This document shows positions 5,929 through 54,753 of a stretch of DNA of 55,574 bases, piece by piece. The stretch is taken from assembly GCA_004321885.1 (NCBI GenBank), contig SCQK01000001.1, forward strand, positions 1 to 55,574, given 5' to 3'. The notes beneath the pieces are model-generated. The model worked only from the letters and a program-made list of their open reading frames with translations, did not search any database and was not told the origin of the DNA. A program made the position numbers and the translations under genes. The stretch comes from Patescibacteria group bacterium (GTDB lineage: Bacteria > Patescibacteriota > Patescibacteriia > Magasanikbacterales > GWA2-37-8). Numbering within the stretch: position 1 is the stretch's first letter; each line of letters begins with the position of its first letter.

Positions 5929-6321
5929 ATGGAAAAGACCAAAGCCGGTTTCGCGCCGGAATTTCTAAAAAAAATAAAACAGATGCTTTCCGATGAAAAA
6001 GCCAAGCTGGAAAGCGAGCTGGCCAAATTTGCCAAAAAAAATCCCGAGGAAGAAGGCGACTATAAAAGCTCGTTTCCGGATTACGGCGACAAAGACGACG
6101 AGAACGCGGCCGAGGTGGCCGAGTACGCCGTGAATTTATCTTTGGAAGACAACCTGGAAAAAACCCTGCGCGACGTGCGCTCGGCCCTGAAGCGCCTGGA
6201 AAAAGGCGACTATGGTTTTTGCAAATACTGCCACAAACCCATAGAAGAAAAGCGCCTGCTGGCCCGCCCCACTTCCAGTTCCTGCATGGAATGCAAAAAA
6301 ATAATCAAGCAGGAAGTTTAG
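5929..6321 (+). CDS. dksA: DksA/TraR family C4-type zinc-finger protein
   Basis: Coiled-coil N-terminal region plus a CxxC-N17-CxxC finger (CKYCHKPIEEKRLLARPTSSSCMECKK). A TATAAT element lies upstream at ~5893. Confidence 0.7.
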   Translation: MEKTKAGFAPEFLKKIKQMLSDEKAKLESELAKFAKKNPEEEGDYKSSFPDYGDKDDENAAEVAEYAVNLSLEDNLEKTLRDVRSALKRLEKGDYGFCKYCHKPIEEKRLLARPTSSSCMECKKIIKQEV

Positions 6322-6322
6322 T

Positions 6323-6829
6323 ATGTTACAAAAAATCCGCTGGAGGAGTTTGCTCACTGGCGGATTTTTTTTAATTATTGACCAATTTTTGAAATGGTTT
6401 TCTTTAGACGCGTGGACAGAAAAAAAGATTGGCTGCCTCGGTTTACCCCCACACCAAAATTTTTGGTGTGGGGGCTGGGAACCATTCGCCAATTATGGCG
6501 CGGCTTTTGGCTTGCCCGTGCCCAACCGGGTGATTGTCATTCTGACTATTCCCGCCCTGTTTCTGATTGGGTATCTATTCGCGAAACAAAGACCCCCTCT
6601 TAATCTCCCCCTTAGCAAGGGGGAGGGGATTCGTTTATTTGCGCTCGCAATTTTATTTTTCGGAGCGCTGTCAAACCTGATAGACCGGCTGGCCTATGGA
6701 TACGTGGTGGATTATCTGCGAGCGCTTACGGGAATAATAAATTTGAGCGATATTCTGATTGTATTGGGATTATTATTTTTTTTGTTTGGTAAAGGGATTC
6801 CTCTCCCGACTAAGTCGGGATCGGAATGA
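6323..6829 (+). CDS. lspA: lipoprotein signal peptidase II
   Basis: Four TM segments with the motifs NYGAAFGLP and DRLAYGYVVDYL. Contains an in-frame family-D repeat (RPPLNLPLSKGEG). Confidence 0.75.
   Translation: MLQKIRWRSLLTGGFFLIIDQFLKWFSLDAWTEKKIGCLGLPPHQNFWCGGWEPFANYGAAFGLPVPNRVIVILTIPALFLIGYLFAKQRPPLNLPLSKGEGIRLFALAILFFGALSNLIDRLAYGYVVDYLRALTGIINLSDILIVLGLLFFLFGKGIPLPTKSGSE
6593..6628. repeat. palindromic repeat family D, in-frame in lspA
   Basis: ccccctcttaatctcccccttagcaagggggagggg. Confidence 0.8.
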
Positions 6830-12195: not shown

Positions 12196-12225
12196 AAATC
12201 TCCCCGCGCGGAAAAATTTTTTACT
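12196..12225 (+). terminator. intrinsic terminator-like hairpin (ccgcgcgg) plus T-run after mrcA
   Basis: ctccccgcgcggaaaaatttttt. Confidence 0.4.
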
Positions 12226-13345
12226 GCCGTATCGGCATGACGATGTAGAGATAGCTGTCGTCGCCCTTGGGCGAGAGCACGCACGGGCTGTCGCCGTTTA
12301 TCACTTTCAGCTGGGTGGCGTCGGTTTCCATATTATTGAGCCCATCTAACACATAGCGGTGGTTGAGCAGGATGGAATTTTGCTCGCCTTTAACATCCGC
12401 GCTTAACTCGGATTTATGGTCTCCGGTCTGGGTGGAAGCCGAGGAAATAGCGACCAGCGACTGCTCGGGTTTTAGGTCAAAAGTAATGGCATTTATGCCT
12501 GTGGTGGTGAAAATTCCGGCCGCTTTTATCTCTTTGGCCAACTGGCTGGTGGAAAACTCGGCCGTGGTCTTAAACTCCCTGGGGATAATCTGTGTATAAT
12601 CCGGATATTGCCCTTCAATTAGCCGAGAAATCACCTCCACATCATTGTAGCGCAGAACGATTTGATTCTCATTTATCATCAAACGGGTGCTTTTTTCAGT
12701 CTCAAAACCCCCAATGAGGGCCAAAACCCGCGATAATTCCTGGGTGGTGCGGCCCGGCACGATAATTTTCACTTTTTCCTCGCCCTGGGCCAGCTTGATT
12801 TTTTTTTCAGCCAACCGGTAGCTGTCGGTGGCCGCCAAGGTCAGATACCCGGGCTTATCATTATTAAAATCAAACAAAATTCCGGAAAGCTCTGGCCTGA
12901 TTTCGTTTTTGCTGGCTGACTGGCTTACCTGATCCAGCCCTCTTTTTAAGATTTCCGCGTCCAGGGTAAAACCCTTGCCCTCGGTTACAGCCGGCAGTAG
13001 GGGAAATTCATCGGCCGGCGAGCCCTTGATTTTAGTGGCTGTTTTTCCGCATACCACTTCCAACTCGCTTCCGTTTAGGCTTAACTCCACTTTTTCATCA
13101 GACAATAAATTGACAAAATCATTCAAAGTGCGCGCCGGCACGGTGAAGGCCCCGGGCGCTTCTATTTTGGCCCGCAGTTGCGAAATGACGGCCACCTCTA
13201 AATTGGTGGTGAGCATTTCCACTTTCTGCTCGCTGGCCTTGATAAGCACGTTGCCTAATATGGGCAGACTGATGTTTTTTCCGGCTACGCCGCTGACAGC
13301 GGCCAGTGTGTGCGATAGATTCTCCTTGGTGCAGATAAATTTCAT
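12221..13345 (-). CDS. dnaN: DNA polymerase III beta sliding clamp
   Basis: Three-domain clamp architecture, with N-terminus MKFICTKENLSHTLAAVSGVAGKNISLPILGNVLI. Confidence 0.9.
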   Translation of the reverse strand: MKFICTKENLSHTLAAVSGVAGKNISLPILGNVLIKASEQKVEMLTTNLEVAVISQLRAKIEAPGAFTVPARTLNDFVNLLSDEKVELSLNGSELEVVCGKTATKIKGSPADEFPLLPAVTEGKGFTLDAEILKRGLDQVSQSASKNEIRPELSGILFDFNNDKPGYLTLAATDSYRLAEKKIKLAQGEEKVKIIVPGRTTQELSRVLALIGGFETEKSTRLMINENQIVLRYNDVEVISRLIEGQYPDYTQIIPREFKTTAEFSTSQLAKEIKAAGIFTTTGINAITFDLKPEQSLVAISSASTQTGDHKSELSADVKGEQNSILLNHRYVLDGLNNMETDATQLKVINGDSPCVLSPKGDDSYLYIVMPIRQ

Positions 13346-13564
13346 GACAGTTGGATTAAATATATTTATATAATAGTAATAATAATACTGTGGAAAAAGG
13401 GGATAAATGTCAAGAGTGTTTTATCTTAGCCAATTTTAAGGAATTTGTCTTGTGGATAATTTTTTACAACCTGTGCGAGAAAGTTGATAAGTTTTACCCG
13501 CTGGTTCAGACCCTGTGGACAATTATATTTTTTATCCACAACTTATCGGCCAGCCGTTCACAGG
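13346..13564. other. candidate oriC: DnaA-box cluster plus AT-rich DUE between dnaA and dnaN
   Basis: Perfect boxes TGTGGATAA (13450-13458) and TTATCCACA (13531-13539), near-boxes tgtggaaaa (13388) and tgtggacaa (13514), and the AT-rich run aatatatttatataatagtaataataata at 13353-13387. Confidence 0.6.
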
Positions 13565-17712: not shown

Positions 17713-18996
17713 CTACTGCAGTAGGTCGTCAAGTTCGCATGCAAGCAGGGCTGATTTGTTTAATAATATCTGCTCATTTGGATTTAATTTGTCCGCTGTC
17801 ATTCTTATAACTTTGGTTGCAATTCCATTCCCGAGCATTACGTTGTTTGTTTTTTTTAGGTAATCCTCATTTTTTTTATTAAAAAGCGAGGCATACTTTT
17901 TTAATTTTTTTTGAGTCGCGGAGTTTGAACGGGCGTCATTGCCGGAGAATTCAATTTTTTTATCAATTTTTTTATCTATTTCTATTGGCAGGTCTCCTTC
18001 TCTAAATTCAATCCAGTAGTCGCTGGTGGCATAAATAATTTTAACAGCGCTACCTTCTTCCGTCGCGTATCTAAAAATAAAAGAAAAATTTTCAGTGTGA
18101 AAATCCTGGTGAATGGAAATTTTTTCCAGTTCTTTAACGGTGTGGATTTCATAATCGTCTAAAAGCTGCCGATAACTTTCACGCCAATTTTTTAGCCAGT
18201 TTTTGATATAGGTCTGATTCACGAATAATGGCGAAAGATCGTTATTGAGATTTTCATCACTCACCCTATTCATTTGTATGGTCAGTTTATCAAAAAGAGT
18301 TCGCACACCCTTCACCTCAATATTTTTCGCCGTTAGGTAATCAAAATCCGGCACGATTTTTTTGCTCATGTACCAAAGTAAATCATAAATATCCCGCCCC
18401 TTTTCTTCATAAATAGCGTCTCCTACGCCGCGCGTGCCGCGCAAAAAAATAGCGGCTAATTTGCTGGCCATCAAGGCGGACATGTTGTAAGTTAAGATGA
18501 CAAAAGAAAGCTGGCCATGGTTTATTGGGCGCCGATCAGTGACTGTCTTTGGAGCGCTAAAATGGTTGAGGTCTATTTTTACGTGCACCTGATTGGAGGG
18601 ATGGCCGAGATTGAGTTCGTTGCCGACATGAAATTTCAAAAGCAATCCGCGGCCATTGTTGATCTTAGTGGTCAGAAAATCGGAATTGGCTCCATACGTA
18701 TTTATGAAATATTTTTCAATTTCATTTTTTAATTTTTCCAAGAATTTATCCGTTACTTCGCCAATAACTTCAAAATCCAAATCCTCGGACATGCGGTCAA
18801 GTCCGTGGATTACGCGCAGAGCCGACCCGCCATACATAGTCCATTGGCTGTACTGGGCGTGGTGATAAATAAAATTGAGAACATAATACTGCAGTTCTTC
18901 TTTGAGAGAGACGCGCCGCGTCATGGCGTCTAGGCCGCCATAGGCGGCAAGGTCATCAAGCTTTTTTTTCAGAACCATTGTTATTTGTTCGCTCAT
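17713..18996 (-). CDS. abiEii: AbiEii/AbiGii-family nucleotidyltransferase toxin (type IV TA / abortive infection) with a ~130-aa C-terminal extension
   Basis: MYGGSALRVIHGLDRMSEDLDFEV is the DUF1814 NTase motif. Overlaps abiEi by 4 nt. Confidence 0.8.
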   Translation of the reverse strand: MSEQITMVLKKKLDDLAAYGGLDAMTRRVSLKEELQYYVLNFIYHHAQYSQWTMYGGSALRVIHGLDRMSEDLDFEVIGEVTDKFLEKLKNEIEKYFINTYGANSDFLTTKINNGRGLLLKFHVGNELNLGHPSNQVHVKIDLNHFSAPKTVTDRRPINHGQLSFVILTYNMSALMASKLAAIFLRGTRGVGDAIYEEKGRDIYDLLWYMSKKIVPDFDYLTAKNIEVKGVRTLFDKLTIQMNRVSDENLNNDLSPLFVNQTYIKNWLKNWRESYRQLLDDYEIHTVKELEKISIHQDFHTENFSFIFRYATEEGSAVKIIYATSDYWIEFREGDLPIEIDKKIDKKIEFSGNDARSNSATQKKLKKYASLFNKKNEDYLKKTNNVMLGNGIATKVIRMTADKLNPNEQILLNKSALLACELDDLLQ

Positions 18997-19607
18997 ACGA
19001 ATTTGCTGATTAGTGAATAAAATTTTTTCTGCTCTCCCGCCTCCATTTCATCAATATCAATTCGCAATTCCTTAGTTAACTTTTTAATCCCAGCCAATTT
19101 TTTGATGCCGCGGAACTGGCGAGTTCGGAAATACAATAAATCAAACAAGGCCTTGGCCGGAGAAGCGATAAAAAAATCAAATTTGCCTTTGAATAAAGAA
19201 AAGCCGGAAAATGATTCGTTATTTATGGACTGGTAAGCAAAATTACCGGCTTTTGATTCGTAGTCTCTCGTAACCTTGGGAGTAACCGAAGTAATGGTGT
19301 GTATCGCTTCGGTGGCCAGATTATAATACTGCAAAGCGGCCCAGGAACTTACATATGATGGGCTGCGGATAATATTTGCGAGAAAAAAAGAATACGAGAT
19401 ATCTAACCGGTTTTTTTCAAAATAATCATCCGAAACATATAGGCCCCTTTTGAGCCGCAGAATTTCCTTGTATTTCAAAAATCGGCTGATGTAGGTGTCG
19501 GTCGTGGTTTTGGCGAGCCCCATCTGGCTGGCGAGCTGGTAGATAGTATCTTTGCTGAAGTGGGGCAATGAATTTAGCTGTATTAAGAGGTTTTTCTTGC
19601 TTTTCAT
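18993..19607 (-). CDS. abiEi: AbiEi-family antitoxin / transcriptional regulator (type IV TA)
   Basis: N-terminal wHTH-like region, ~200 aa, directly upstream of and overlapping abiEii. A TTGACA-N17-TACGAT promoter lies upstream on the minus strand. Confidence 0.75.
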   Translation of the reverse strand: MKSKKNLLIQLNSLPHFSKDTIYQLASQMGLAKTTTDTYISRFLKYKEILRLKRGLYVSDDYFEKNRLDISYSFFLANIIRSPSYVSSWAALQYYNLATEAIHTITSVTPKVTRDYESKAGNFAYQSINNESFSGFSLFKGKFDFFIASPAKALFDLLYFRTRQFRGIKKLAGIKKLTKELRIDIDEMEAGEQKKFYSLISKFV

Positions 19608-45654: not shown

Positions 45655-47235
45655 ATGCATACAGAAGTCGTTAGAATAAATCGGGCGCTGATTTCGGTGT
45701 CAAATAAAACCGGCATAGCGGAGTTTGCCCGCGAACTCCAAAAATTGGGCGTGGAAATAATTTCCACCGGCGGCACGCACAAATTGCTTTGCGAAAACAA
45801 AATACCGGCCGTGGAAATTTCCCAGTACACCGGCTTTCCGGAAATGATGGACGGCCGCGTGAAAACCCTGCACCCCTTGGTGCACGGTGGCATCTTGGGT
45901 TTGCGGGATAAACACGCCGAAGCCGCAGCCGGCCATAATATTAAATGGATTGATTTGGTGGTTTGCAATTTGTATCCTTTTTTGGAAACAATAAAAAAAC
46001 CCGGCGTAACCGAGGAGGAAGCGATTGAAAACATAGACATCGGCGGGCCCACCATGATTCGCTCGGCCGCCAAAAATATTGGCTGGACGTGCGCGGTGGT
46101 TGACCCCGAGGATTATAGTAAAATTTTGGCTGAAATAAGAGAAAAAAACGGAGTAAGTTTTGACACGCGCAAAGCACTTTCGGCGAAAGCGTACGCGCAC
46201 ACGACGCGCTATGACGCGGTGATTTCCAATTATTTCAAGCCGGAAAAATTTCCCAAAGAACTCTCGCTCGGTTTTGCTAAATATTATGATTTGCGCTACG
46301 GCGAAAATCCGCATCAGCAAGCCGCGGCCTACAAAGACGAGCTCTGCGCCACAGCGAATATTTTTTTAGCGAAAATCTTGCAGGGCAAGCAGTTATCGTA
46401 CAACAATTTCATTGACGCGGACGCGGCCCTGCAGATGGTAAAGGAATTTGAGCCGCCGGCTTGCGTGATTGTGAAGCATAACAATCCCTGCGGAGCGGCC
46501 ATTGCCGAAAACGCGGAAGCGGCTTTCGCCAAAGCGTTTGCCTGCGATTCGTTGTCGGCTTTCGGCGGGGTGGTGGCGCTTAATCGCGAGTGCGACGCGG
46601 CTCTGGCCGAGAAACTCTCCAAAATATTTTTGGAAATCGTGCTCGCGCCCAAGTTCGCGCCTGCGGCCGTGGAAATTTTATCTAAAAAACAAAATCTGCG
46701 CTTGCTGGAATTGGAAAAAATATCAGTGCCGGCCAGCCGGCTGACTTACAAGCTGATTGAGGGTGGGCTCTTGGCGCAAGACAGCAATACAAAAGAAATT
46801 ACCGAAGCGGATTTGAAAGTCGTGACCAAGCGCCGGCCCGAAACAGGCGAAATTCAAGCCATGCTCTTCGCCTGGAAAATATTGAAGCACATGAAATCAA
46901 ACGCCATTTTGATAGCCAAGGCCGACGCCACGGTGGGAATCGGCGTGGGCCAAGTGTCACGCGTGGATTCGGTGGATATTGCCATAAAAAAATCCGGTAT
47001 GGCTGGCTCCATAGTCCCCGACTTAGTCGGGGCCGTGGAGCCGTTCGCCGGCTGCGTGCTGGCCTCGGACGCCTTTTTCCCCTTCCGCGACAGCATAGAC
47101 AAAATCGCGGCCGCCGCCGGCGTCAAAGCCATTGTCCAGCCCGGGGGTTCCATCAAAGACCAGGAAGTCATCGCGGCCTGCGACGAACACGGCATCGCCA
47201 TGGTCTTTACCGGCCATCGCTGTTTCGCGCATTGA
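45655..47235 (+). CDS. purH: bifunctional AICAR transformylase / IMP cyclohydrolase
   Basis: MGS-like N-terminal region (ALISVSNKTG) and the AICARFT domain. Contains an in-frame family B repeat. Confidence 0.95.
   Translation: MHTEVVRINRALISVSNKTGIAEFARELQKLGVEIISTGGTHKLLCENKIPAVEISQYTGFPEMMDGRVKTLHPLVHGGILGLRDKHAEAAAGHNIKWIDLVVCNLYPFLETIKKPGVTEEEAIENIDIGGPTMIRSAAKNIGWTCAVVDPEDYSKILAEIREKNGVSFDTRKALSAKAYAHTTRYDAVISNYFKPEKFPKELSLGFAKYYDLRYGENPHQQAAAYKDELCATANIFLAKILQGKQLSYNNFIDADAALQMVKEFEPPACVIVKHNNPCGAAIAENAEAAFAKAFACDSLSAFGGVVALNRECDAALAEKLSKIFLEIVLAPKFAPAAVEILSKKQNLRLLELEKISVPASRLTYKLIEGGLLAQDSNTKEITEADLKVVTKRRPETGEIQAMLFAWKILKHMKSNAILIAKADATVGIGVGQVSRVDSVDIAIKKSGMAGSIVPDLVGAVEPFAGCVLASDAFFPFRDSIDKIAAAAGVKAIVQPGGSIKDQEVIAACDEHGIAMVFTGHRCFAH
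47007..47044. repeat. family B 38-bp palindrome, in-frame in purH
   Basis: ggctccatagtccccgacttagtcggggccgtggagcc, translating to GSIVPDLVGAVEP. Confidence 0.8.
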
Positions 47236-48586: not shown

Positions 48587-49693
48587 CTAGTCTTCCATCG
48601 TCGGTTTTTCTATCCGCAGGGTTTCCACTTGCCGCTCCCCATCGGTAATACGTACGATGTCCTTGTCAATTTTGCCGAATTCCTTGTACGCGCTGTTGTA
48701 GGTGTTCACGGTTGTGGCCAGATGCCCGCCCAGTTTTTTTAAATATTCATCATAAGCCAGCAGGTGTTTGCCCAAATCTTCCACCCGTTTGCGGATTTCC
48801 TTGGATGACTCTTCTATTTGCAAAGCGCGCAGGCCCTGCAAAACCGTTTGTAAATAGGCCAAAAACGAGGTGGGAGAGACAATGATGACATGCTTTTGGC
48901 GAAAAGCGTATTCTATTAAATCATGCGTGTTTGATTGAAGCGTCCCGACTTTGTTTATGAGCAGGTCGTAATAAATGCCTTCGGACGGAATAAACATAAA
49001 CGCGAAATCCATGGTTCCTTCTTTGGGCTTGATGTATTTGCTTGTTTCATCTATGCGCGTTTTCAGGTCCCGCTTGAACAGATTTTCCAGCTCTTCCCGC
49101 CGGGCCGGGTCTTTTTCCTGCACCGCGCGGTTGTAATTTTCCAAACTAAATTTGGAGTCAATCGGTATGAGCTTGTCTTTGAGTATCACGACCGCGTCCA
49201 CGATGTCTCCGTCCGCGAATTTGTGTTGCATTTCATAGGCGCCCGGGGGCAAAACATTTTTCAAAACATTTTCCAGATAGTATTCTCCCAAAATGCCGCG
49301 GTGCTTTGGGTTTTGCAAAACATCCTCCAGGTCTTGCAGTTGAACGGCAAAATTCATGATTTGCTTGTTGGTTTCGTCCAGCTTGGTCAATTTTTCCGTA
49401 ACGTCGGTGATGATTTTGACGCTCTGGCCGAATTGGGTTTGGATGGTTTTATTCAAATTGGCCTGGGTGTCGGCCATTACTTTGTGCGTGTCGGAAATTT
49501 TCTGTTCAAACAATCTGTTCAGCTCCTGTATCTGGTTTTGCAGCATTAAAAAAAGATTTTGGCTTTCACGCGCTGGTTTGCGGGTTTTTACGGCCAAAAT
49601 AATGGCCGCGGCCAAAAGCAAAGACAATAGGATAATAATGGGAATAAGCAGGGTTTGCATATTGAAACAGTGATAGCTTGTGCATTGTAGCAT
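48587..49693 (-). CDS. rmuC: RmuC-family DNA recombination protein
   Basis: N-terminal TM segment, long coiled coil, and a C-terminal RmuC-like nuclease-fold region. Confidence 0.65.
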   Translation of the reverse strand: MLQCTSYHCFNMQTLLIPIIILLSLLLAAAIILAVKTRKPARESQNLFLMLQNQIQELNRLFEQKISDTHKVMADTQANLNKTIQTQFGQSVKIITDVTEKLTKLDETNKQIMNFAVQLQDLEDVLQNPKHRGILGEYYLENVLKNVLPPGAYEMQHKFADGDIVDAVVILKDKLIPIDSKFSLENYNRAVQEKDPARREELENLFKRDLKTRIDETSKYIKPKEGTMDFAFMFIPSEGIYYDLLINKVGTLQSNTHDLIEYAFRQKHVIIVSPTSFLAYLQTVLQGLRALQIEESSKEIRKRVEDLGKHLLAYDEYLKKLGGHLATTVNTYNSAYKEFGKIDKDIVRITDGERQVETLRIEKPTMED

Positions 49694-49734: not shown

Positions 49735-49806
49735 CCGCTTCCTCTCCCCATAGTTCAACGGATAGAATAAGACACTCCTAATGTCTAGATCCAGGTTCAA
49801 TTCCTG
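49735..49806 (+). tRNA. tRNA-Arg (CCT)
   Basis: Acceptor ctcccca/tggggag, D-arm with GG, anticodon stem agaca/tgtct with loop cTCCTaa, and T-arm ccagg-ttcaatt-cctgg. Confidence 0.75.
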
Positions 49807-49838
49807 GTGGGGAGACATGGCGGGGAAAAAGTCAACGA

Positions 49839-49911
49839 GGGCCTGTAGCTCATCTGGTAGAGCGCCGCATTCGCATTGCGGAGGTAAGGGGTTCGATTCC
49901 CCTCAGGTCCA
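49839..49911 (+). tRNA. tRNA-Ala (CGC)
   Basis: Acceptor gggcctg/caggtcc with G3:U70, D-arm gctc/gagc, anticodon stem ccgca/tgcgg with loop tTCGCat, T-arm agggg-ttcgatt-cccct, and A73. Confidence 0.85.
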
Positions 49912-49918
49912 CAAATTT

Positions 49919-49946: not shown

Positions 49947-50010
49947 AGAAATCGTAGAATGCCATTTTATAACTAATATTAGCATAGAAACGCCATTTTT
50001 GCATTTCTTG

Positions 50011-50038: not shown

Positions 50039-50096
50039 TTTTCCATTTTTTAGCTGGTTTTGGGGTATGTGGCGACACAATGGTATCTGACATTCA

Positions 50097-50134
50097 GGCT
50101 CTACAGCCCCGACTAAGTCGGGGACTATGGAGCC
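50097..50134. repeat. family B 38-bp palindrome
   Basis: ggctctacagccccgactaagtcggggactatggagcc. Confidence 0.8.
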
Positions 50135-50168
50135 GGCGATGACAGCGATGGTCAGAAAGATAGTAGCC

Positions 50169-50230
50169 TGTGGATAATTGTGGATAAGTCTGTGCATAAG
50201 TGGTGAATTTGTGGGGATATGTGGTTAACG
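50169..50230. promoter_or_regulatory. DnaA-box cluster distant from dnaA
   Basis: Two perfect TGTGGATAA boxes (50169-77 and 50179-87) plus tgtgcataa and tgtggggat, bracketed by two family B copies. An AT-rich stretch follows at ~50440-50590. Confidence 0.5.
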
Positions 50231-50250
50231 GGTTACATTATAGGCATTTA

Positions 50251-50288
50251 GGCTCTACAGCCCCGACTAAGTCGGGGACTATGGAGCC
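50251..50288. repeat. family B 38-bp palindrome
   Basis: ggctctacagccccgactaagtcggggactatggagcc. Confidence 0.8.
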
Positions 50289-50593
50289 AGCCGAGAAGTG
50301 AGCGGGAGAGCGGGAGCGAGGCTTCATGCCCGAGAGCCGGCACGTTGGGCTGGTCGAGGAAAGCGAGAACACATTCAAACCGCTTGGATCGCGCGAGCTT
50401 CAAAGTTTTTTGCGGGAGACTGCTATTCAAATTTTTTTCATTATTTTTTTTCAATTATTTATTGTCGTTTCTTTCGGAACTCCAGAAAATATTTTTATCC
50501 GCTACATCATGTAGTAAAAAAATAAAAATAAAAAATTATTGTCTTTGCTTGTAAAATATGTTATACTGATTTTAGAAAATTTATTTTTTAATT

Positions 50594-50631
50594 CTGGATT
50601 CCCGGTCGCCTGTGGCGACAGGGAATGACAG
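50594..50631. repeat. family A-related palindrome variant
   Basis: ctggattcccggtcgcctgtggcgacagggaatgacag. A TGtTATACT extended -10 lies just upstream at ~50557. Confidence 0.6.
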
Positions 50632-50649: not shown

Positions 50650-52920
50650 ATGACTAACGCTCGCGTCATAAAGTTTTTAGACATTTTTTCTTACGTTTTG
50701 ATTTTGCTTTCGGTATTCATCGTACCGCTCTTCATAGACAAAAGCCTGCTTAATTTTTATATCATACCAAAACAGTATGTGTTTGCCGGCTTTATCCTGT
50801 TGAATATTCTCGTCTTCGCCATCAAGATGGTTTTATCCAAAAAAATAAAATTTCAGCAATCCGTATTTGACGCGCCGCTTTTAGTTTTTTTGCTCTTGGT
50901 TTTGGCTTCGTCTCTTTTTTCCGTGAATAGCTATGTCAGTTTTTTGGGGCGCGGCGAATTCTTTCTGCTCAATTTTGTCTTTCTTTTATTTTCGGTTTTC
51001 TTCTATTTTATTTTCGTCAATCATGTCAATTCGGCCAGGCGCTGGAGCGCTGTCCTGGAACTTTTTTTGCTGGTTTCCGGCCTGGTGTCGCTCTTTTTTA
51101 TCGTTAAGACGGTGTTTAAATTTTCTCTGCCATACATCGGCGCGATGACTAATCTGCTGGACCCGACCAGCAGCCAGTTCGGCGTACTCATGATTGCCGC
51201 GGCCGTGCTCTCGGCCGGCCTCTTGATGAAAAAAAATATCGGCGTGGGGCGCGCCATTGCCTATTTTTTTACGCTAATATTAGCCATAATTCCATTGCTG
51301 ATAATGGGCTTTTCATTCCTATGGTGGCTCTTGCTGATTGGCTTGGTATTGCTTCTCCTCCTGGGGGTGAGCTTTATGCATAACACACGTATCGGATGGT
51401 TGTCAGTGATTTTTGCCCTACTGGTGGTATCCTGCGTGTTCGTGATTTTTGGCAGTCCCAAATCATTGCAGACCGCTTTGCCGGCCGAGGTGTCGCTGGG
51501 GCTGTCGCCTTCATGGCGCGTCGCGCGCGGCGCGGTCTTGTCCGGCGCCAAAACCTTTTTGCTCGGCAGCGGGCCCGGCACTTTCGCGGCTGATTTTTCC
51601 AGATTTCGCGACCAGTCTTTCAATTACGACCAGTTGGCCTGGTCTTTGCGCTTCAATCAGCCGTTTGACACCCTGCTTGCATTTTTGGCCGAGGGCGGCG
51701 TGTTGGTGTCGCTGACGTTTCTGCTGATTTCCCTGCTGGTGCTGGGGCATATTTTTTCCACCTGGCACAAATCGCGCGGGCCAACGCCGCAAAGTTTTCA
51801 CGCCAGCCTTTCCATCAGCCGCGCTGATTTGCGCCTGGATGTTTTTTTGGCGGCCGTGGTTTGGCTCATCTTGTGGTCGGGCATGACTGTTGCTTTTTAC
51901 AACCCGGCGCTTTGGTTTTTTTGGTGGCTCTTTTTGGCTCTTATCGTGAGCGGCATGTCTTTGCTCGGCCATGAAGTGCTTAAAGAAAAAGTTTGGACAT
52001 TGGAAGATACGCCCCAATATCATTTGGCGATTTCGTTCAGCCTCATCGCCGTGATGGCCGCGGTTATCCTGGTGGGCGTTTTGGGTAGTAGATTTTATCT
52101 GGCCGAAAAAGCCTATACCCAGTCTTTGCGCGCCAGCGATGTGCGTCAGGCCCAGGAAAAAATTGCTGCAGCCATTGCTTTGCGCGATGGCAATGACCAG
52201 TATCACGCCACGCTCGCCAATGCCTACCTCACCGAGGCCGCTACCCTAAGTAAAAAGCCGAATCCGGATTTGCGCCAGATTGCCGACCTCATGGCAAAAG
52301 CCGTCAATGCGGCCAAAAAAGCCACCGAATTGTCACCCAACGACGTAGTCTTGCAGGAGACCCTGGCCACCATGTATGAAAACGCGGCCATGCTTGTGCC
52401 CGAAGCCAGCCAGTGGGCCGTGAAATCTTGGGGCGCGGCCATTGAGCTGGAGCCGACCAACGCCTTTTTGCGCTACCGGCTGGCCAACAATTATTTTCTG
52501 TCTAAAAATATCAGCAAGGCCATTGAAGCCTATAAGCAAGCCGTTGACCTGAAAAGGGATTTCGCCGTTGCTCACGGCGGACTGGCGCTGGCGTACGAAG
52601 CCGACAAGCAATATGACAGCGCCATTGAATCATACCGAAACGCTCTTAGTTTGAATCCGGCGAACAGCGAGTTGATATTTAATTTGGGCCGACTGCTTTA
52701 CAATCGCAACAAGGGAGCGGACCGGGCGGCTGCCGAAAAATTGTGGCTGGAAGCGGTGCGCTTGCAGCCGAATTATTCCAACGCCCTGTATAGCCTGGGG
52801 CTTTATTATGAAAATCTCGGCAACAAAACCGCGGCCTTGCAATACTATTACAAGGTCAAGGATTTGAATCCGGATAACAAGGATATCACGGCTAAAATTA
52901 AAAGTTTGGTTGGCAGATAA
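50650..52920 (+). CDS. polytopic membrane protein, O-antigen ligase/polymerase-like with C-terminal TPR repeats
   Basis: More than 10 TM helices, the LLGSGPGTF motif after a large loop, and ~6 TPR-like repeats at the C-terminus. Confidence 0.55.
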   Translation: MTNARVIKFLDIFSYVLILLSVFIVPLFIDKSLLNFYIIPKQYVFAGFILLNILVFAIKMVLSKKIKFQQSVFDAPLLVFLLLVLASSLFSVNSYVSFLGRGEFFLLNFVFLLFSVFFYFIFVNHVNSARRWSAVLELFLLVSGLVSLFFIVKTVFKFSLPYIGAMTNLLDPTSSQFGVLMIAAAVLSAGLLMKKNIGVGRAIAYFFTLILAIIPLLIMGFSFLWWLLLIGLVLLLLLGVSFMHNTRIGWLSVIFALLVVSCVFVIFGSPKSLQTALPAEVSLGLSPSWRVARGAVLSGAKTFLLGSGPGTFAADFSRFRDQSFNYDQLAWSLRFNQPFDTLLAFLAEGGVLVSLTFLLISLLVLGHIFSTWHKSRGPTPQSFHASLSISRADLRLDVFLAAVVWLILWSGMTVAFYNPALWFFWWLFLALIVSGMSLLGHEVLKEKVWTLEDTPQYHLAISFSLIAVMAAVILVGVLGSRFYLAEKAYTQSLRASDVRQAQEKIAAAIALRDGNDQYHATLANAYLTEAATLSKKPNPDLRQIADLMAKAVNAAKKATELSPNDVVLQETLATMYENAAMLVPEASQWAVKSWGAAIELEPTNAFLRYRLANNYFLSKNISKAIEAYKQAVDLKRDFAVAHGGLALAYEADKQYDSAIESYRNALSLNPANSELIFNLGRLLYNRNKGADRAAAEKLWLEAVRLQPNYSNALYSLGLYYENLGNKTAALQYYYKVKDLNPDNKDITAKIKSLVGR

Positions 52921-53604: not shown

Positions 53605-54580
53605 TATGTTTTTTTTGTCATTGCGAGTCACGAAGTGGAGAAGCAATCCCTCGCATTGGGCAGGGGATTGCTTCGTCGCTCTGCTCCTCGCAATGACACT
53701 GCTTCCTTCCCCCGTCAGTGCGGTTAGCATCTCTCCATCCAAAGCGTTTGTTACCATAGACCCGGGCGCTAGCCAGACAATGATTTTGAAAATTAAAAAC
53801 GATGGGCCGCGAGACGCGCGCTATAAACTTTTGGTTTTGGGAGCCAAGCAAAATGAAAACGGGGATTTATTTTACGGCGCGAATTTTTGGCCGGCCGAAA
53901 CCTGGGTTCAGCCTGAAAGCAATGTGGTGGAAGTAGGGGCCGGCCAAGAGCGTAAAGTAATTTTTGAAATCAACGCGCCGCGTGATGCCGCGCCCGGTTC
54001 CAATTATCTTTCATTGCAGGTTGAGCCGAGCTCGTCGGCAGGCGCTGGCGGGGTGCAGTTGCAGGCCCGCGTAGCCTCGCTTTTAATTTTGCAGGTGGCG
54101 GGAAGCGTGCGCGAGGAATTGGAAATTTTACAATGGTCTCCGCGAGCCTACTCTTGGCGCAAAGCAGTCTGGCCTTTTGAGCTTATCGCGCAAAACAACG
54201 GCCCTGTTGAGGTGGAAACTGCAGCGCGAGTAGTCGTGAAAAATTGGTTGGGCCGGGAAAAAATTATAAAAGAAATTGAACTGGGAAAAATTTTAGCCGG
54301 CGCCATACGGGTTTCGCATCAGGAAGTTAAACCACACGGGGTCGTTTATTGCAAAGGTCTTTGTCCGACAATATATACGCCCGATTCAAAAATTTGGCTG
54401 CCGGGCAGATACACGGTAAAAACAGAAATCAAATACGGGCTGACCAAGCAAACCGCGCGCGCCGAGGCACAAGTCTGGTTTTGGCCTTTATGGAGCCTTT
54501 TAGCTGGCCTACTACTTATTGTAGTAGGTAGTCTCGCTGGCTCCATAGCGCTTCGTAAAGCTCGCTCGCTGGCTCCATAG
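53555..54580 (+). CDS. hypothetical cell-surface protein with a C-terminal TM anchor (true start probably ~53693, after the repeat)
   Basis: C-terminal anchor FWPLWSLLAGLLLIVVGSLAGSIAL. The stop codon is supplied by a family B repeat. Confidence 0.55.
   Translation: MPSTRTLLPSLRRINCDMFFLSLRVTKWRSNPSHWAGDCFVALLLAMTLLPSPVSAVSISPSKAFVTIDPGASQTMILKIKNDGPRDARYKLLVLGAKQNENGDLFYGANFWPAETWVQPESNVVEVGAGQERKVIFEINAPRDAAPGSNYLSLQVEPSSSAGAGGVQLQARVASLLILQVAGSVREELEILQWSPRAYSWRKAVWPFELIAQNNGPVEVETAARVVVKNWLGREKIIKEIELGKILAGAIRVSHQEVKPHGVVYCKGLCPTIYTPDSKIWLPGRYTVKTEIKYGLTKQTARAEAQVWFWPLWSLLAGLLLIVVGSLAGSIALRKARSLAP
53617..53697. repeat. family C composite palindromic element
   Basis: gtcattgcgag...gaagcaatccc / ggggattgcttcg...ctcgcaatgac. 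Confidence 0.8.
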
Positions 54581-54608
54581 TCCCCGACTAAGTCGGGGCT
54601 GTGGAGCC
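54571..54608. repeat. family B 38-bp palindrome overlapping the stop codon
   Basis: ggctccatagtccccgactaagtcggggctgtggagcc, where the tag within ggctccatag is the stop. A 16-bp direct duplication ctcgctggctccatag lies just upstream. Confidence 0.8.
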
Positions 54609-54753
54609 AACGCGTGACAAGAAGCCGTCCCTAACCGGGCGGTTTTCTTGTGTCCAAAAATATTTTTGACCACAAGCAAAGTTATCCACAGTTTGCGGGG
54701 TAAAGAATCATTCCGTGGAAGCCTATAAAATGCTATAATAGAGTACAAATCTA

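Follow-up and report, generated by a model that had tools for sequence, protein, structure and literature searches.

The intergenic region between rmuC and the gene for a 756-aa membrane protein, directly downstream of two tRNA genes, harbors the densest cluster of DnaA boxes in the window, by which we mean the whole stretch of 55,574 nucleotides of Patescibacteria DNA that was analyzed (Table 1). In agreement with the initial annotation, two perfect boxes (a and b), separated by 1 bp, are accompanied by two boxes with one mismatch each (c and d), and the cluster, denoted here the 50-kb cluster, lies about 35-36 kb from dnaA. The plus strand at 50169-50228 reads TGTGGATAA-t-TGTGGATAA-gtc-TGTGCATAA-g-tggtgaatt-tgtggggata-TGTGGTTAA; all 4 boxes share one orientation (head-to-tail), and 3 match the relaxed consensus TTATNCACA perfectly. 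The cluster is real and far above chance: 5 perfect boxes were observed in the window against 0.42 expected, a number that none of 100 shuffles produced, and the cluster scores 6 within 120 bp, compared with a maximum of 3 in 500 first-order Markov simulations. The DnaA protein encoded in the window carries the canonical domain IV motifs (GGRDHTTAMHA) and therefore should recognize TTATCCACA, so that binding to these boxes is predicted. The fifth perfect box of the window precedes a TATAAT-like element and the next ORF by ~50 bp, at a distance of 75 bp from a copy of the repeat described below; it may mark a DnaA-regulated promoter or may have arisen by chance.

Table 1. Coordinates of the features of the window that are discussed in the text
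Feature	Position	Strand	Remarks
dksA-like ORF	5929..6321		second neighbourhood of the module
dnaN	12221..13345		
Inferred oriC unwinding unit, dnaA-dnaN spacer	13337..13406	-	tandem boxes 13398-13406 and 13389-13397; six DnaA-trios 13371-13388; AT-rich DNA
dnaA	13565..14953		
Two head-to-tail boxes upstream of dnaA	15060..15079		TGTGGAAAA-ac-TGTGCACAA
AbiEii-type nucleotidyltransferase toxin gene	17713..18996		3 kb from origin
204-aa ORF	18993..19607		overlaps the toxin gene
De novo purine cluster	31795..47235		folD, purA, purL, purM-like, purQ, purC/E, purB, purF-purD fusion, purN, purH
rmuC	48587..49693	-	divergent from tRNA operon; anchor for finding relatives
tRNA-Arg(CCT) + tRNA-Ala(CGC) operon	49744..49912	+	immediately upstream of 50-kb locus; synteny kept in relatives
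PAL variant copy 1 TTTGTATAGAGTTGTATATACAAA	49922..49945		10 nt after tRNA-Ala; 31-nt direct repeat
ACTAATATTAGC palindrome	49972..49983		between both PAL copies; resembles GGCTAAnATTAGCC of relatives (read from sequence)
PAL variant copy 2 TTTGTATAGAGTTGTATATACAAA	50014..50037		followed by T-rich run
Palindromic repeat (REP-like), left bracket of boxes	50091..50137	+	
DnaA box a	50169..50177	-	perfect: TTATCCACA on minus, TGTGGATAA on plus
DnaA box b	50179..50187	-	perfect; equivalent of conserved module box 1 in relatives
DnaA box c TGTGCATAA	50191..50199	-	one mismatch; fits TTATNCACA; starts 12 bp after box b, like box 2 in relatives
DnaA box d TGTGGTTAA	50220..50228	-	one mismatch
Palindromic repeat (REP-like), right bracket of boxes	50245..50291	+	
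Most AT-rich 150 bp of window	50444..50593		80.7% A+T
Promoter-like site TTGTCT-17-TATACT	50539..50567		in AT-rich tract
Gene for 756-aa membrane protein with C-terminal TPR repeats	50650..52920	+	downstream of 50-kb cluster
Fifth perfect DnaA box (TTATCCACA)	54682..54690	+	

The boxes are bracketed by two 47-nt palindromic repeats that are identical in 45 of the 47 positions, including the entire 38-nt cores, as originally described. The core of the family, CCGACTNAGTCGG, is present in 7 copies in the window (at 6806, 15411, 34137, 47018, 50109, 50263 and 54584) against 0.05 expected, and the repeat folds into a hairpin of -13.3 kcal/mol (z = -4.5). The bracketing copies are short, GC-rich, imperfect palindromes of a family with many dispersed copies, mostly at gene ends, that is, they are REP-like, and at this locus they are incidental insertions of that family. 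Several REP-like copies overlap the 3' ends or starts of ORFs; one (47005-47042) lies within the C-terminal extension of the purH ORF and another (54571-54608) spans the stop of a 341-aa ORF. The AT-rich stretch of ~150 bp that follows the boxes, which the initial annotation had also pointed out, is the maximum of the window; with the promoter-like site that it includes, it forms part of the promoter region of the downstream 756-aa gene. The label "O-antigen-ligase-like" for this gene found no support in Pfam, where C-terminal TPR repeats were the sole match, with none for residues 1-600. Rfam searches of the window, the 50-kb region and eight related loci returned tRNAs only, and the IHF consensus WATCAANNNNTTR was not found in 49.9-50.7 kb.

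We conclude that the origin of replication is located at dnaA-dnaN and that the 50-kb cluster is no origin. On the minus strand, the dnaA-dnaN spacer reads TTATCCCCT-TTTTCCACA, directly followed by GTA TTA TTA TTA CTA TTA, so that the six trios on the opposite strand are 3'-CAT AAT AAT AAT GAT AAT-5'; the DNA beyond the trios is 78-86% A+T. This arrangement fits the published definition of the basal unwinding system, namely, a box and, within 0-16 bp on the 3' side of TTATCCACA, three or more NAN trios (preferably 3'-GAT-5') that adjoin AT-rich DNA (PMC8287927). The same layout is found in the dnaA-dnaN spacer of the related locus L116 (3218-3290; TTATCCCCA, ctgtccaca, gc, ATTATTATTACTATTATTA, then AT-rich DNA), where the unwinding unit is nearly base-for-base like that of the window, at 67% identity between the DnaA proteins. 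Two more boxes are present upstream of dnaA (Table 1). The cumulative GC skew reaches its minimum at ~12-13 kb, and the step in the 5-kb flanking skew is +0.08 at 13.45 kb versus -0.06 at 50.2 kb, which places the origin at dnaA, an outcome that the initial annotation had envisaged. At four-fold degenerate sites, GC skew tracks the coding strand and does not reveal the direction of replication; what the skew shows is therefore drawn from total composition and from a left arm of only 12 kb.

Two groups of genes lie between this origin and the 50-kb cluster. The AbiEii-type toxin gene and the overlapping 204-aa ORF probably comprise a type IV toxin-antitoxin pair. The other group is a full de novo purine cluster, which is unusual for Patescibacteria; given that polA is directly followed by holA in four related loci (L082, L139, L150, L159), it looks like an insertion of ~16 kb.

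With RmuC as the anchor, 80 loci were gathered from species-representative genomes. The closest RmuC relatives, 65-79% identical, belong to Candidatus Magasanikbacteria and other Patescibacteria, and the order rmuC, tRNA-Arg(CCT), tRNA-Ala(CGC) is kept in the relatives. Boxes in the same orientation are found 60-210 bp past the last tRNA in six loci (L002, L003, L007, L008, L011, L050), and are displaced in L001; as estimated from length and composition, the chance of one perfect box in one orientation within 300 bp is ~0.001-0.003. L156 and L191 (GGTGGATAAcTGTGGATAAaatTGTGTATAA) share the spacing of the window, with 1 nt between the first two boxes and 3 nt before the third, and in the relatives with the rmuC neighbourhood, box 1 starts 10-12 nt past the T-tract of the tRNA-Ala terminator (TTTTTGTTTATAAAA-TGTGGATAA). 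Judging from these sequence comparisons, the 50-kb cluster is conserved in related uncultured bacteria. The initial annotation had left room for the boxes not being conserved in related genomes; they are present at the homologous position in Magasanikbacteria, so that, of its two proposals, the titration or regulatory site survives and is strengthened, whereas the second origin is contradicted by the skew and by the unwinding unit in the dnaA-dnaN spacer.

In the relatives, the boxes are located at a fixed distance from a 24-bp palindrome, PAL, with the sequence TTTGTATA-S-ACTAGT-S-TATACAAA. An exact-pattern search of metagenomes retrieved PAL in at least 120 contigs; the 120 PAL loci listed come from 120 different contigs, one locus each, and the contigs of at least 100 kb (at least 11, 2.87 Mb in total) likewise contain one PAL locus each among the matches listed. 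We scored linkage in these 120 loci as the presence of TTATNCACA boxes within 150 bp of PAL. Among the matches listed, boxes accompany PAL in 19 of the 22 loci in the neighbourhood of rmuC and a TPR-protein gene, in 19/20 in a second neighbourhood with dksA-like, lspA and comM-like genes, in 18/26 on other or short contigs, and in 6/52 where PAL lies between genes for an HTH_17-like protein and an ECF sigma factor. Over the first 80 metagenome loci, boxes occur at 3.0 per kb in the vicinity of PAL versus 0.11 per kb elsewhere in the loci, and their offsets from PAL show sharp peaks at -25, -37 and -57 on one side and +40 and +28 on the other.

The resulting box-PAL module consists of two or three head-to-tail boxes, with starts 12 and then ~20 bp apart, in one of two geometries. 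In geometry A, box 1 comes 1 nt after PAL, box 2 a further 3 nt on and box 3 another 11 nt on, and the AT-rich DNA beyond them (~50-60 bp) usually leads to a second PAL; in geometry B, box 1, 3 nt, box 2 and ~19 nt precede PAL, such that box 1 starts 40±2 bp ahead of it. Five loci (L085, L111, L132, L135, L173) have an inverted box pair, TGTGGATAA-N19-TTATCCACA, by PAL, a GGCTAAnATTAGCC element is found between PAL pairs in relatives, and L150 contains four tandem PAL copies with a spacing of 78 bp. In the second neighbourhood, the module comes after the terminator of the upstream gene (fusA in L128 and L091), and a consensus TTGACA-17-TATAAT promoter lies 3-77 bp past the second PAL. The genes downstream of the module differ (a TPR-protein gene, a TrmB-like regulator, a LAGLIDADG endonuclease, dksA-lspA), and its structure is kept in no fewer than two gene neighbourhoods that are unrelated to each other. 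The second of these is present in the window, too, with the dksA-like ORF, lspA, a comM-like gene and the consensus promoter, and neither PAL nor boxes were found there; in L116, the module sits at the second neighbourhood, ~6 kb from dnaA. Thus, the module keeps its structure while its genomic address and downstream genes change, and this combination, along with the second neighbourhood of the window being free of the module, argues for a function independent of the neighbours.

In nine loci (L116, L128, L129, L134, L141, L148, L106, L084, L154), a conserved stretch of ~400 nt with no obvious ORF separates the promoter past the second PAL from the dksA-like gene. Its copies share the motifs AACTGCTAAA, GTGGCRAATCC and GGTAACCYCAATCTT, it matched no Rfam family and no tmRNA as predicted by ARAGORN, and it is absent from the window. 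This stretch may be a new leader or non-coding RNA.

Within PAL, C and G vary independently at positions 9 and 16, with many CC and GG combinations, and the variant centres in the window, L082 and L159 are non-palindromic, whereas the arms are invariant. This is what a protein-binding site in double-stranded DNA would look like, the binder of PAL presumably being a dimeric protein. The same pattern, with no compensatory changes in the arms, rules out a hairpin of RNA or DNA. We also rejected the idea that PAL is a mobile, phage or plasmid element, given that no match was found in viral contigs, plasmids or phages and that each contig listed has a single locus. The PAL sequence was not found in the searchable literature. 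In the more distant relatives L082 (10350-11180, 12560-12830) and L159 (5300-5560, 8250-8440), the RmuC proteins of which are 36-37% identical, several PAL-like variants, TTGTATACACAAGTGTATACAA, are found in alternation with perfect boxes to the left and right of rmuC; the pairing is therefore old, and one locus can have several copies of it.

Two kinds of genes occur close to PAL in particular sets of loci. Where PAL has the small HTH_17-like gene on one side and, on the other, an operon that encodes an ECF sigma factor together with a putative anti-sigma factor (e.g. L113 6139-7566, L123, L137, L145), it is often paired, with the two copies 81-125 bp apart, and the small HTH_17-like protein is a candidate PAL-binding factor; no homologue of the candidate regulators associated with PAL, namely, the HTH_17-like protein, the ECF sigma factor and the TrmB-like protein, is encoded in the window. 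In seven loci (L081, L094, L121, L124, L150, L157, L029), a free-standing ORF for a LAGLIDADG endonuclease is located 60-170 bp from PAL; this endonuclease may be homing into a highly conserved intergenic sequence.

The copy of the module in the window departs from those in the relatives. Only two PAL variants are present in 55 kb, both at this locus, against 0.01 expected (Table 1), and the box array lies 130 bp beyond them, between the repeat copies. The position occupied by PAL in the relatives corresponds to 50220-50243, where TGTGGTTAACGGGTTACATTATAG follows GGGGATA and 10 of the 24 bases match PAL (comparison with L156, by eye). The window copy has an extra perfect box, a decayed abutting PAL, two variant PALs upstream, and REP-like repeats inserted on both sides. 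With the abutting PAL degenerate and the module split by repeats, this copy might be partly decayed.

We propose, with a probability of roughly 45%, that the 50-kb cluster is a conserved DnaA-regulatory locus outside oriC and the local copy of the box-PAL module of Patescibacteria. The sequence analysis shows the layout of the locus, its conservation, the strict spacing of boxes and PAL, a single PAL locus on each contig listed, the position directly past a strong transcription unit and the lack of origin features; DnaA binding to the module, its regulatory role and the direction of that role are what we infer from sequence. Under this proposal, a short DnaA oligomer would assemble on the phased boxes, with or beside the PAL-binding factor, and the complex would modulate the DnaA pool or its nucleotide state, in a manner comparable to datA with IHF, DARS2 with IHF and Fis, or the clusters of Bacillus subtilis; read-through from the strongly expressed upstream transcription unit may tune the complex. 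With 3-6 boxes, there is little capacity for simple titration. A more specific version, which is possible but which we offer only tentatively, is that the module is a datA/DARS-like replication-control locus of Patescibacteria, present once per chromosome, served by a new accessory protein and connected to a highly expressed operon for tRNAs or translation factors through the terminator of that operon. In that case, a DnaA-control site acting in cis would link initiation to growth-rate-dependent transcription in these bacteria with their reduced genomes and dependence on a host. We found no paper on the control of replication initiation in Patescibacteria (candidate phyla radiation), and in the literature searched, no paper combines "DnaA box" with Patescibacteria; the composite of phased boxes and a second site offers a testable handle on DnaA regulation in reduced-genome bacteria.

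The main rival to a DnaA-regulatory locus is promoter control, whereby DnaA, as a transcription factor, and a PAL-binding regulator would act on a nearby promoter, the candidate targets being the membrane/TPR gene, read-through from the tRNA operon or an unannotated transcript. DnaA is already known as a transcription factor, and a TGTGAATAA box overlaps the promoter spacer of the TPR-protein gene in L003 and L050. The closeness of the consensus promoter to the second PAL in the dksA-lspA neighbourhood points the same way, as does the location of PAL in divergent promoter regions in 52 loci among the matches listed. Because PAL is mostly box-free between the HTH and ECF genes (46 of the 52 loci listed), its binder looks like an ordinary transcription factor, and hence the module could be a promoter-control element. 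We nevertheless consider promoter control rather unlikely: the nearest predicted promoter in the window is 310 bp downstream, past a GC-rich repeat, the genes downstream of the module are variable, and the dksA-lspA promoter of the window apparently works without the module. Still less probable is a hub for segregation or chromosome organization near the origin, with boxes, PAL and parS marking a centromere-like region. Relatives do have 3-8 perfect parS palindromes, TGTTTCACGTGAAACA, confined to the same intergenic region (L007 4586-5170, L008 4761-5327, L003 5130-5414; 36-117 bp spacing), the tandem PALs of L150 resemble a centromere, and the DnaA-box clusters of B. subtilis interact genetically with Spo0J/Soj (PMC3245932). 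However, a search of the window that allowed up to 3 mismatches gave no parS-like site, and in the second neighbourhood parS is missing from the surroundings of most box-PAL modules.

The two remaining explanations concern the window itself. That its copy is a decaying relic without current function in this genome would be in line with the loss of the abutting PAL and with the REP-like insertions that split the module, but is improbable, considering that three boxes fit TTATNCACA perfectly with the spacing seen in L156 and L191 and that two adjacent perfect 9-mers would not survive decay. A second or detached origin element, with DnaA opening the AT-rich tract, could be suspected because box density and, over 150 bp, A+T content both reach their maximum for the window in this region, and its distance from dnaA is no bar, as origins can be far from dnaA, for example in E. 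coli. The boxes at 50169 and 50179 also agree with the box component of the basal unwinding system (1-2 boxes with at most 2 mismatches). However, both in the window and in L116, it is the dnaA-dnaN spacer that has the complete, conserved unit of boxes, trios and AT-rich DNA. On their unwinding side, the 50-kb boxes have only three NAN trios, the permissive minimum (two of them 3'-GAT-5'), compared with six at dnaA-dnaN, and no AT-rich DNA was found beside these trios, the next 40 nt being REP-like repeat with 40% A+T versus 78% at 13389. Relative to the boxes, the AT-rich tract falls on the wrong side and 195 bp off, past GC-rich DNA, the genes on either side of the cluster run in one direction, and there is no minus-to-plus switch in skew at 50.2 kb, nor on average at 21 PAL loci, where the 5-kb flanking skew is noisy (mean -0.02; 8 of 21 positive). 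An origin element at this site is therefore highly improbable, and predictors that score DnaA-box density and AT-richness would probably mis-call the 50-kb locus as oriC.

For a DnaA-regulatory locus outside oriC, the closest parallel would be datA of E. coli, which is located just downstream of the glyVXY tRNA operon, requires an accessory DNA-binding protein and is regulated by transcriptional read-through (PMC10950094). As with datA, the 50-kb locus is an intergenic DnaA-box cluster outside oriC, directly past a tRNA operon terminator, and PAL would be the site of an accessory protein; datA is present once per chromosome and PAL once per contig among those listed. It differs from datA in having the 24-bp palindrome PAL instead of an IHF consensus, in the tight head-to-tail array of boxes and in the absence of sequence homology. 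The tandem high-affinity boxes are shared with the basal unwinding system of oriC, but on the trio side the cluster has neither a run of good trios nor AT-rich DNA. The E. coli sites DARS1 and DARS2 have a three-box core as well, with accessory-protein sites in DARS2. One box of the DARS core is in the opposite orientation, whereas all 4 boxes in the window and those in most relatives point one way. Given the lack of an IHF consensus and this difference from the DARS core, we do not claim membership in the datA or DARS family. The origin-proximal DnaA-box clusters of B. subtilis, which restrain initiation (PMC3245932), are similarly intergenic and near the origin while outside oriC (~36 kb away here and ~6 kb in L116), and their genetic interaction with ParB/ParA has a possible counterpart in the parS arrays by the module in relatives. 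They differ in number, with 3-6 boxes at apparently one locus per genome here against six clusters there, and in that the boxes described here are in strict register with a putative second protein-binding site. Such a phased partner site beside DnaA boxes outside oriC is widespread in Patescibacteria and apparently undescribed, and the box-PAL module thereby points to a new DNA-binding factor.
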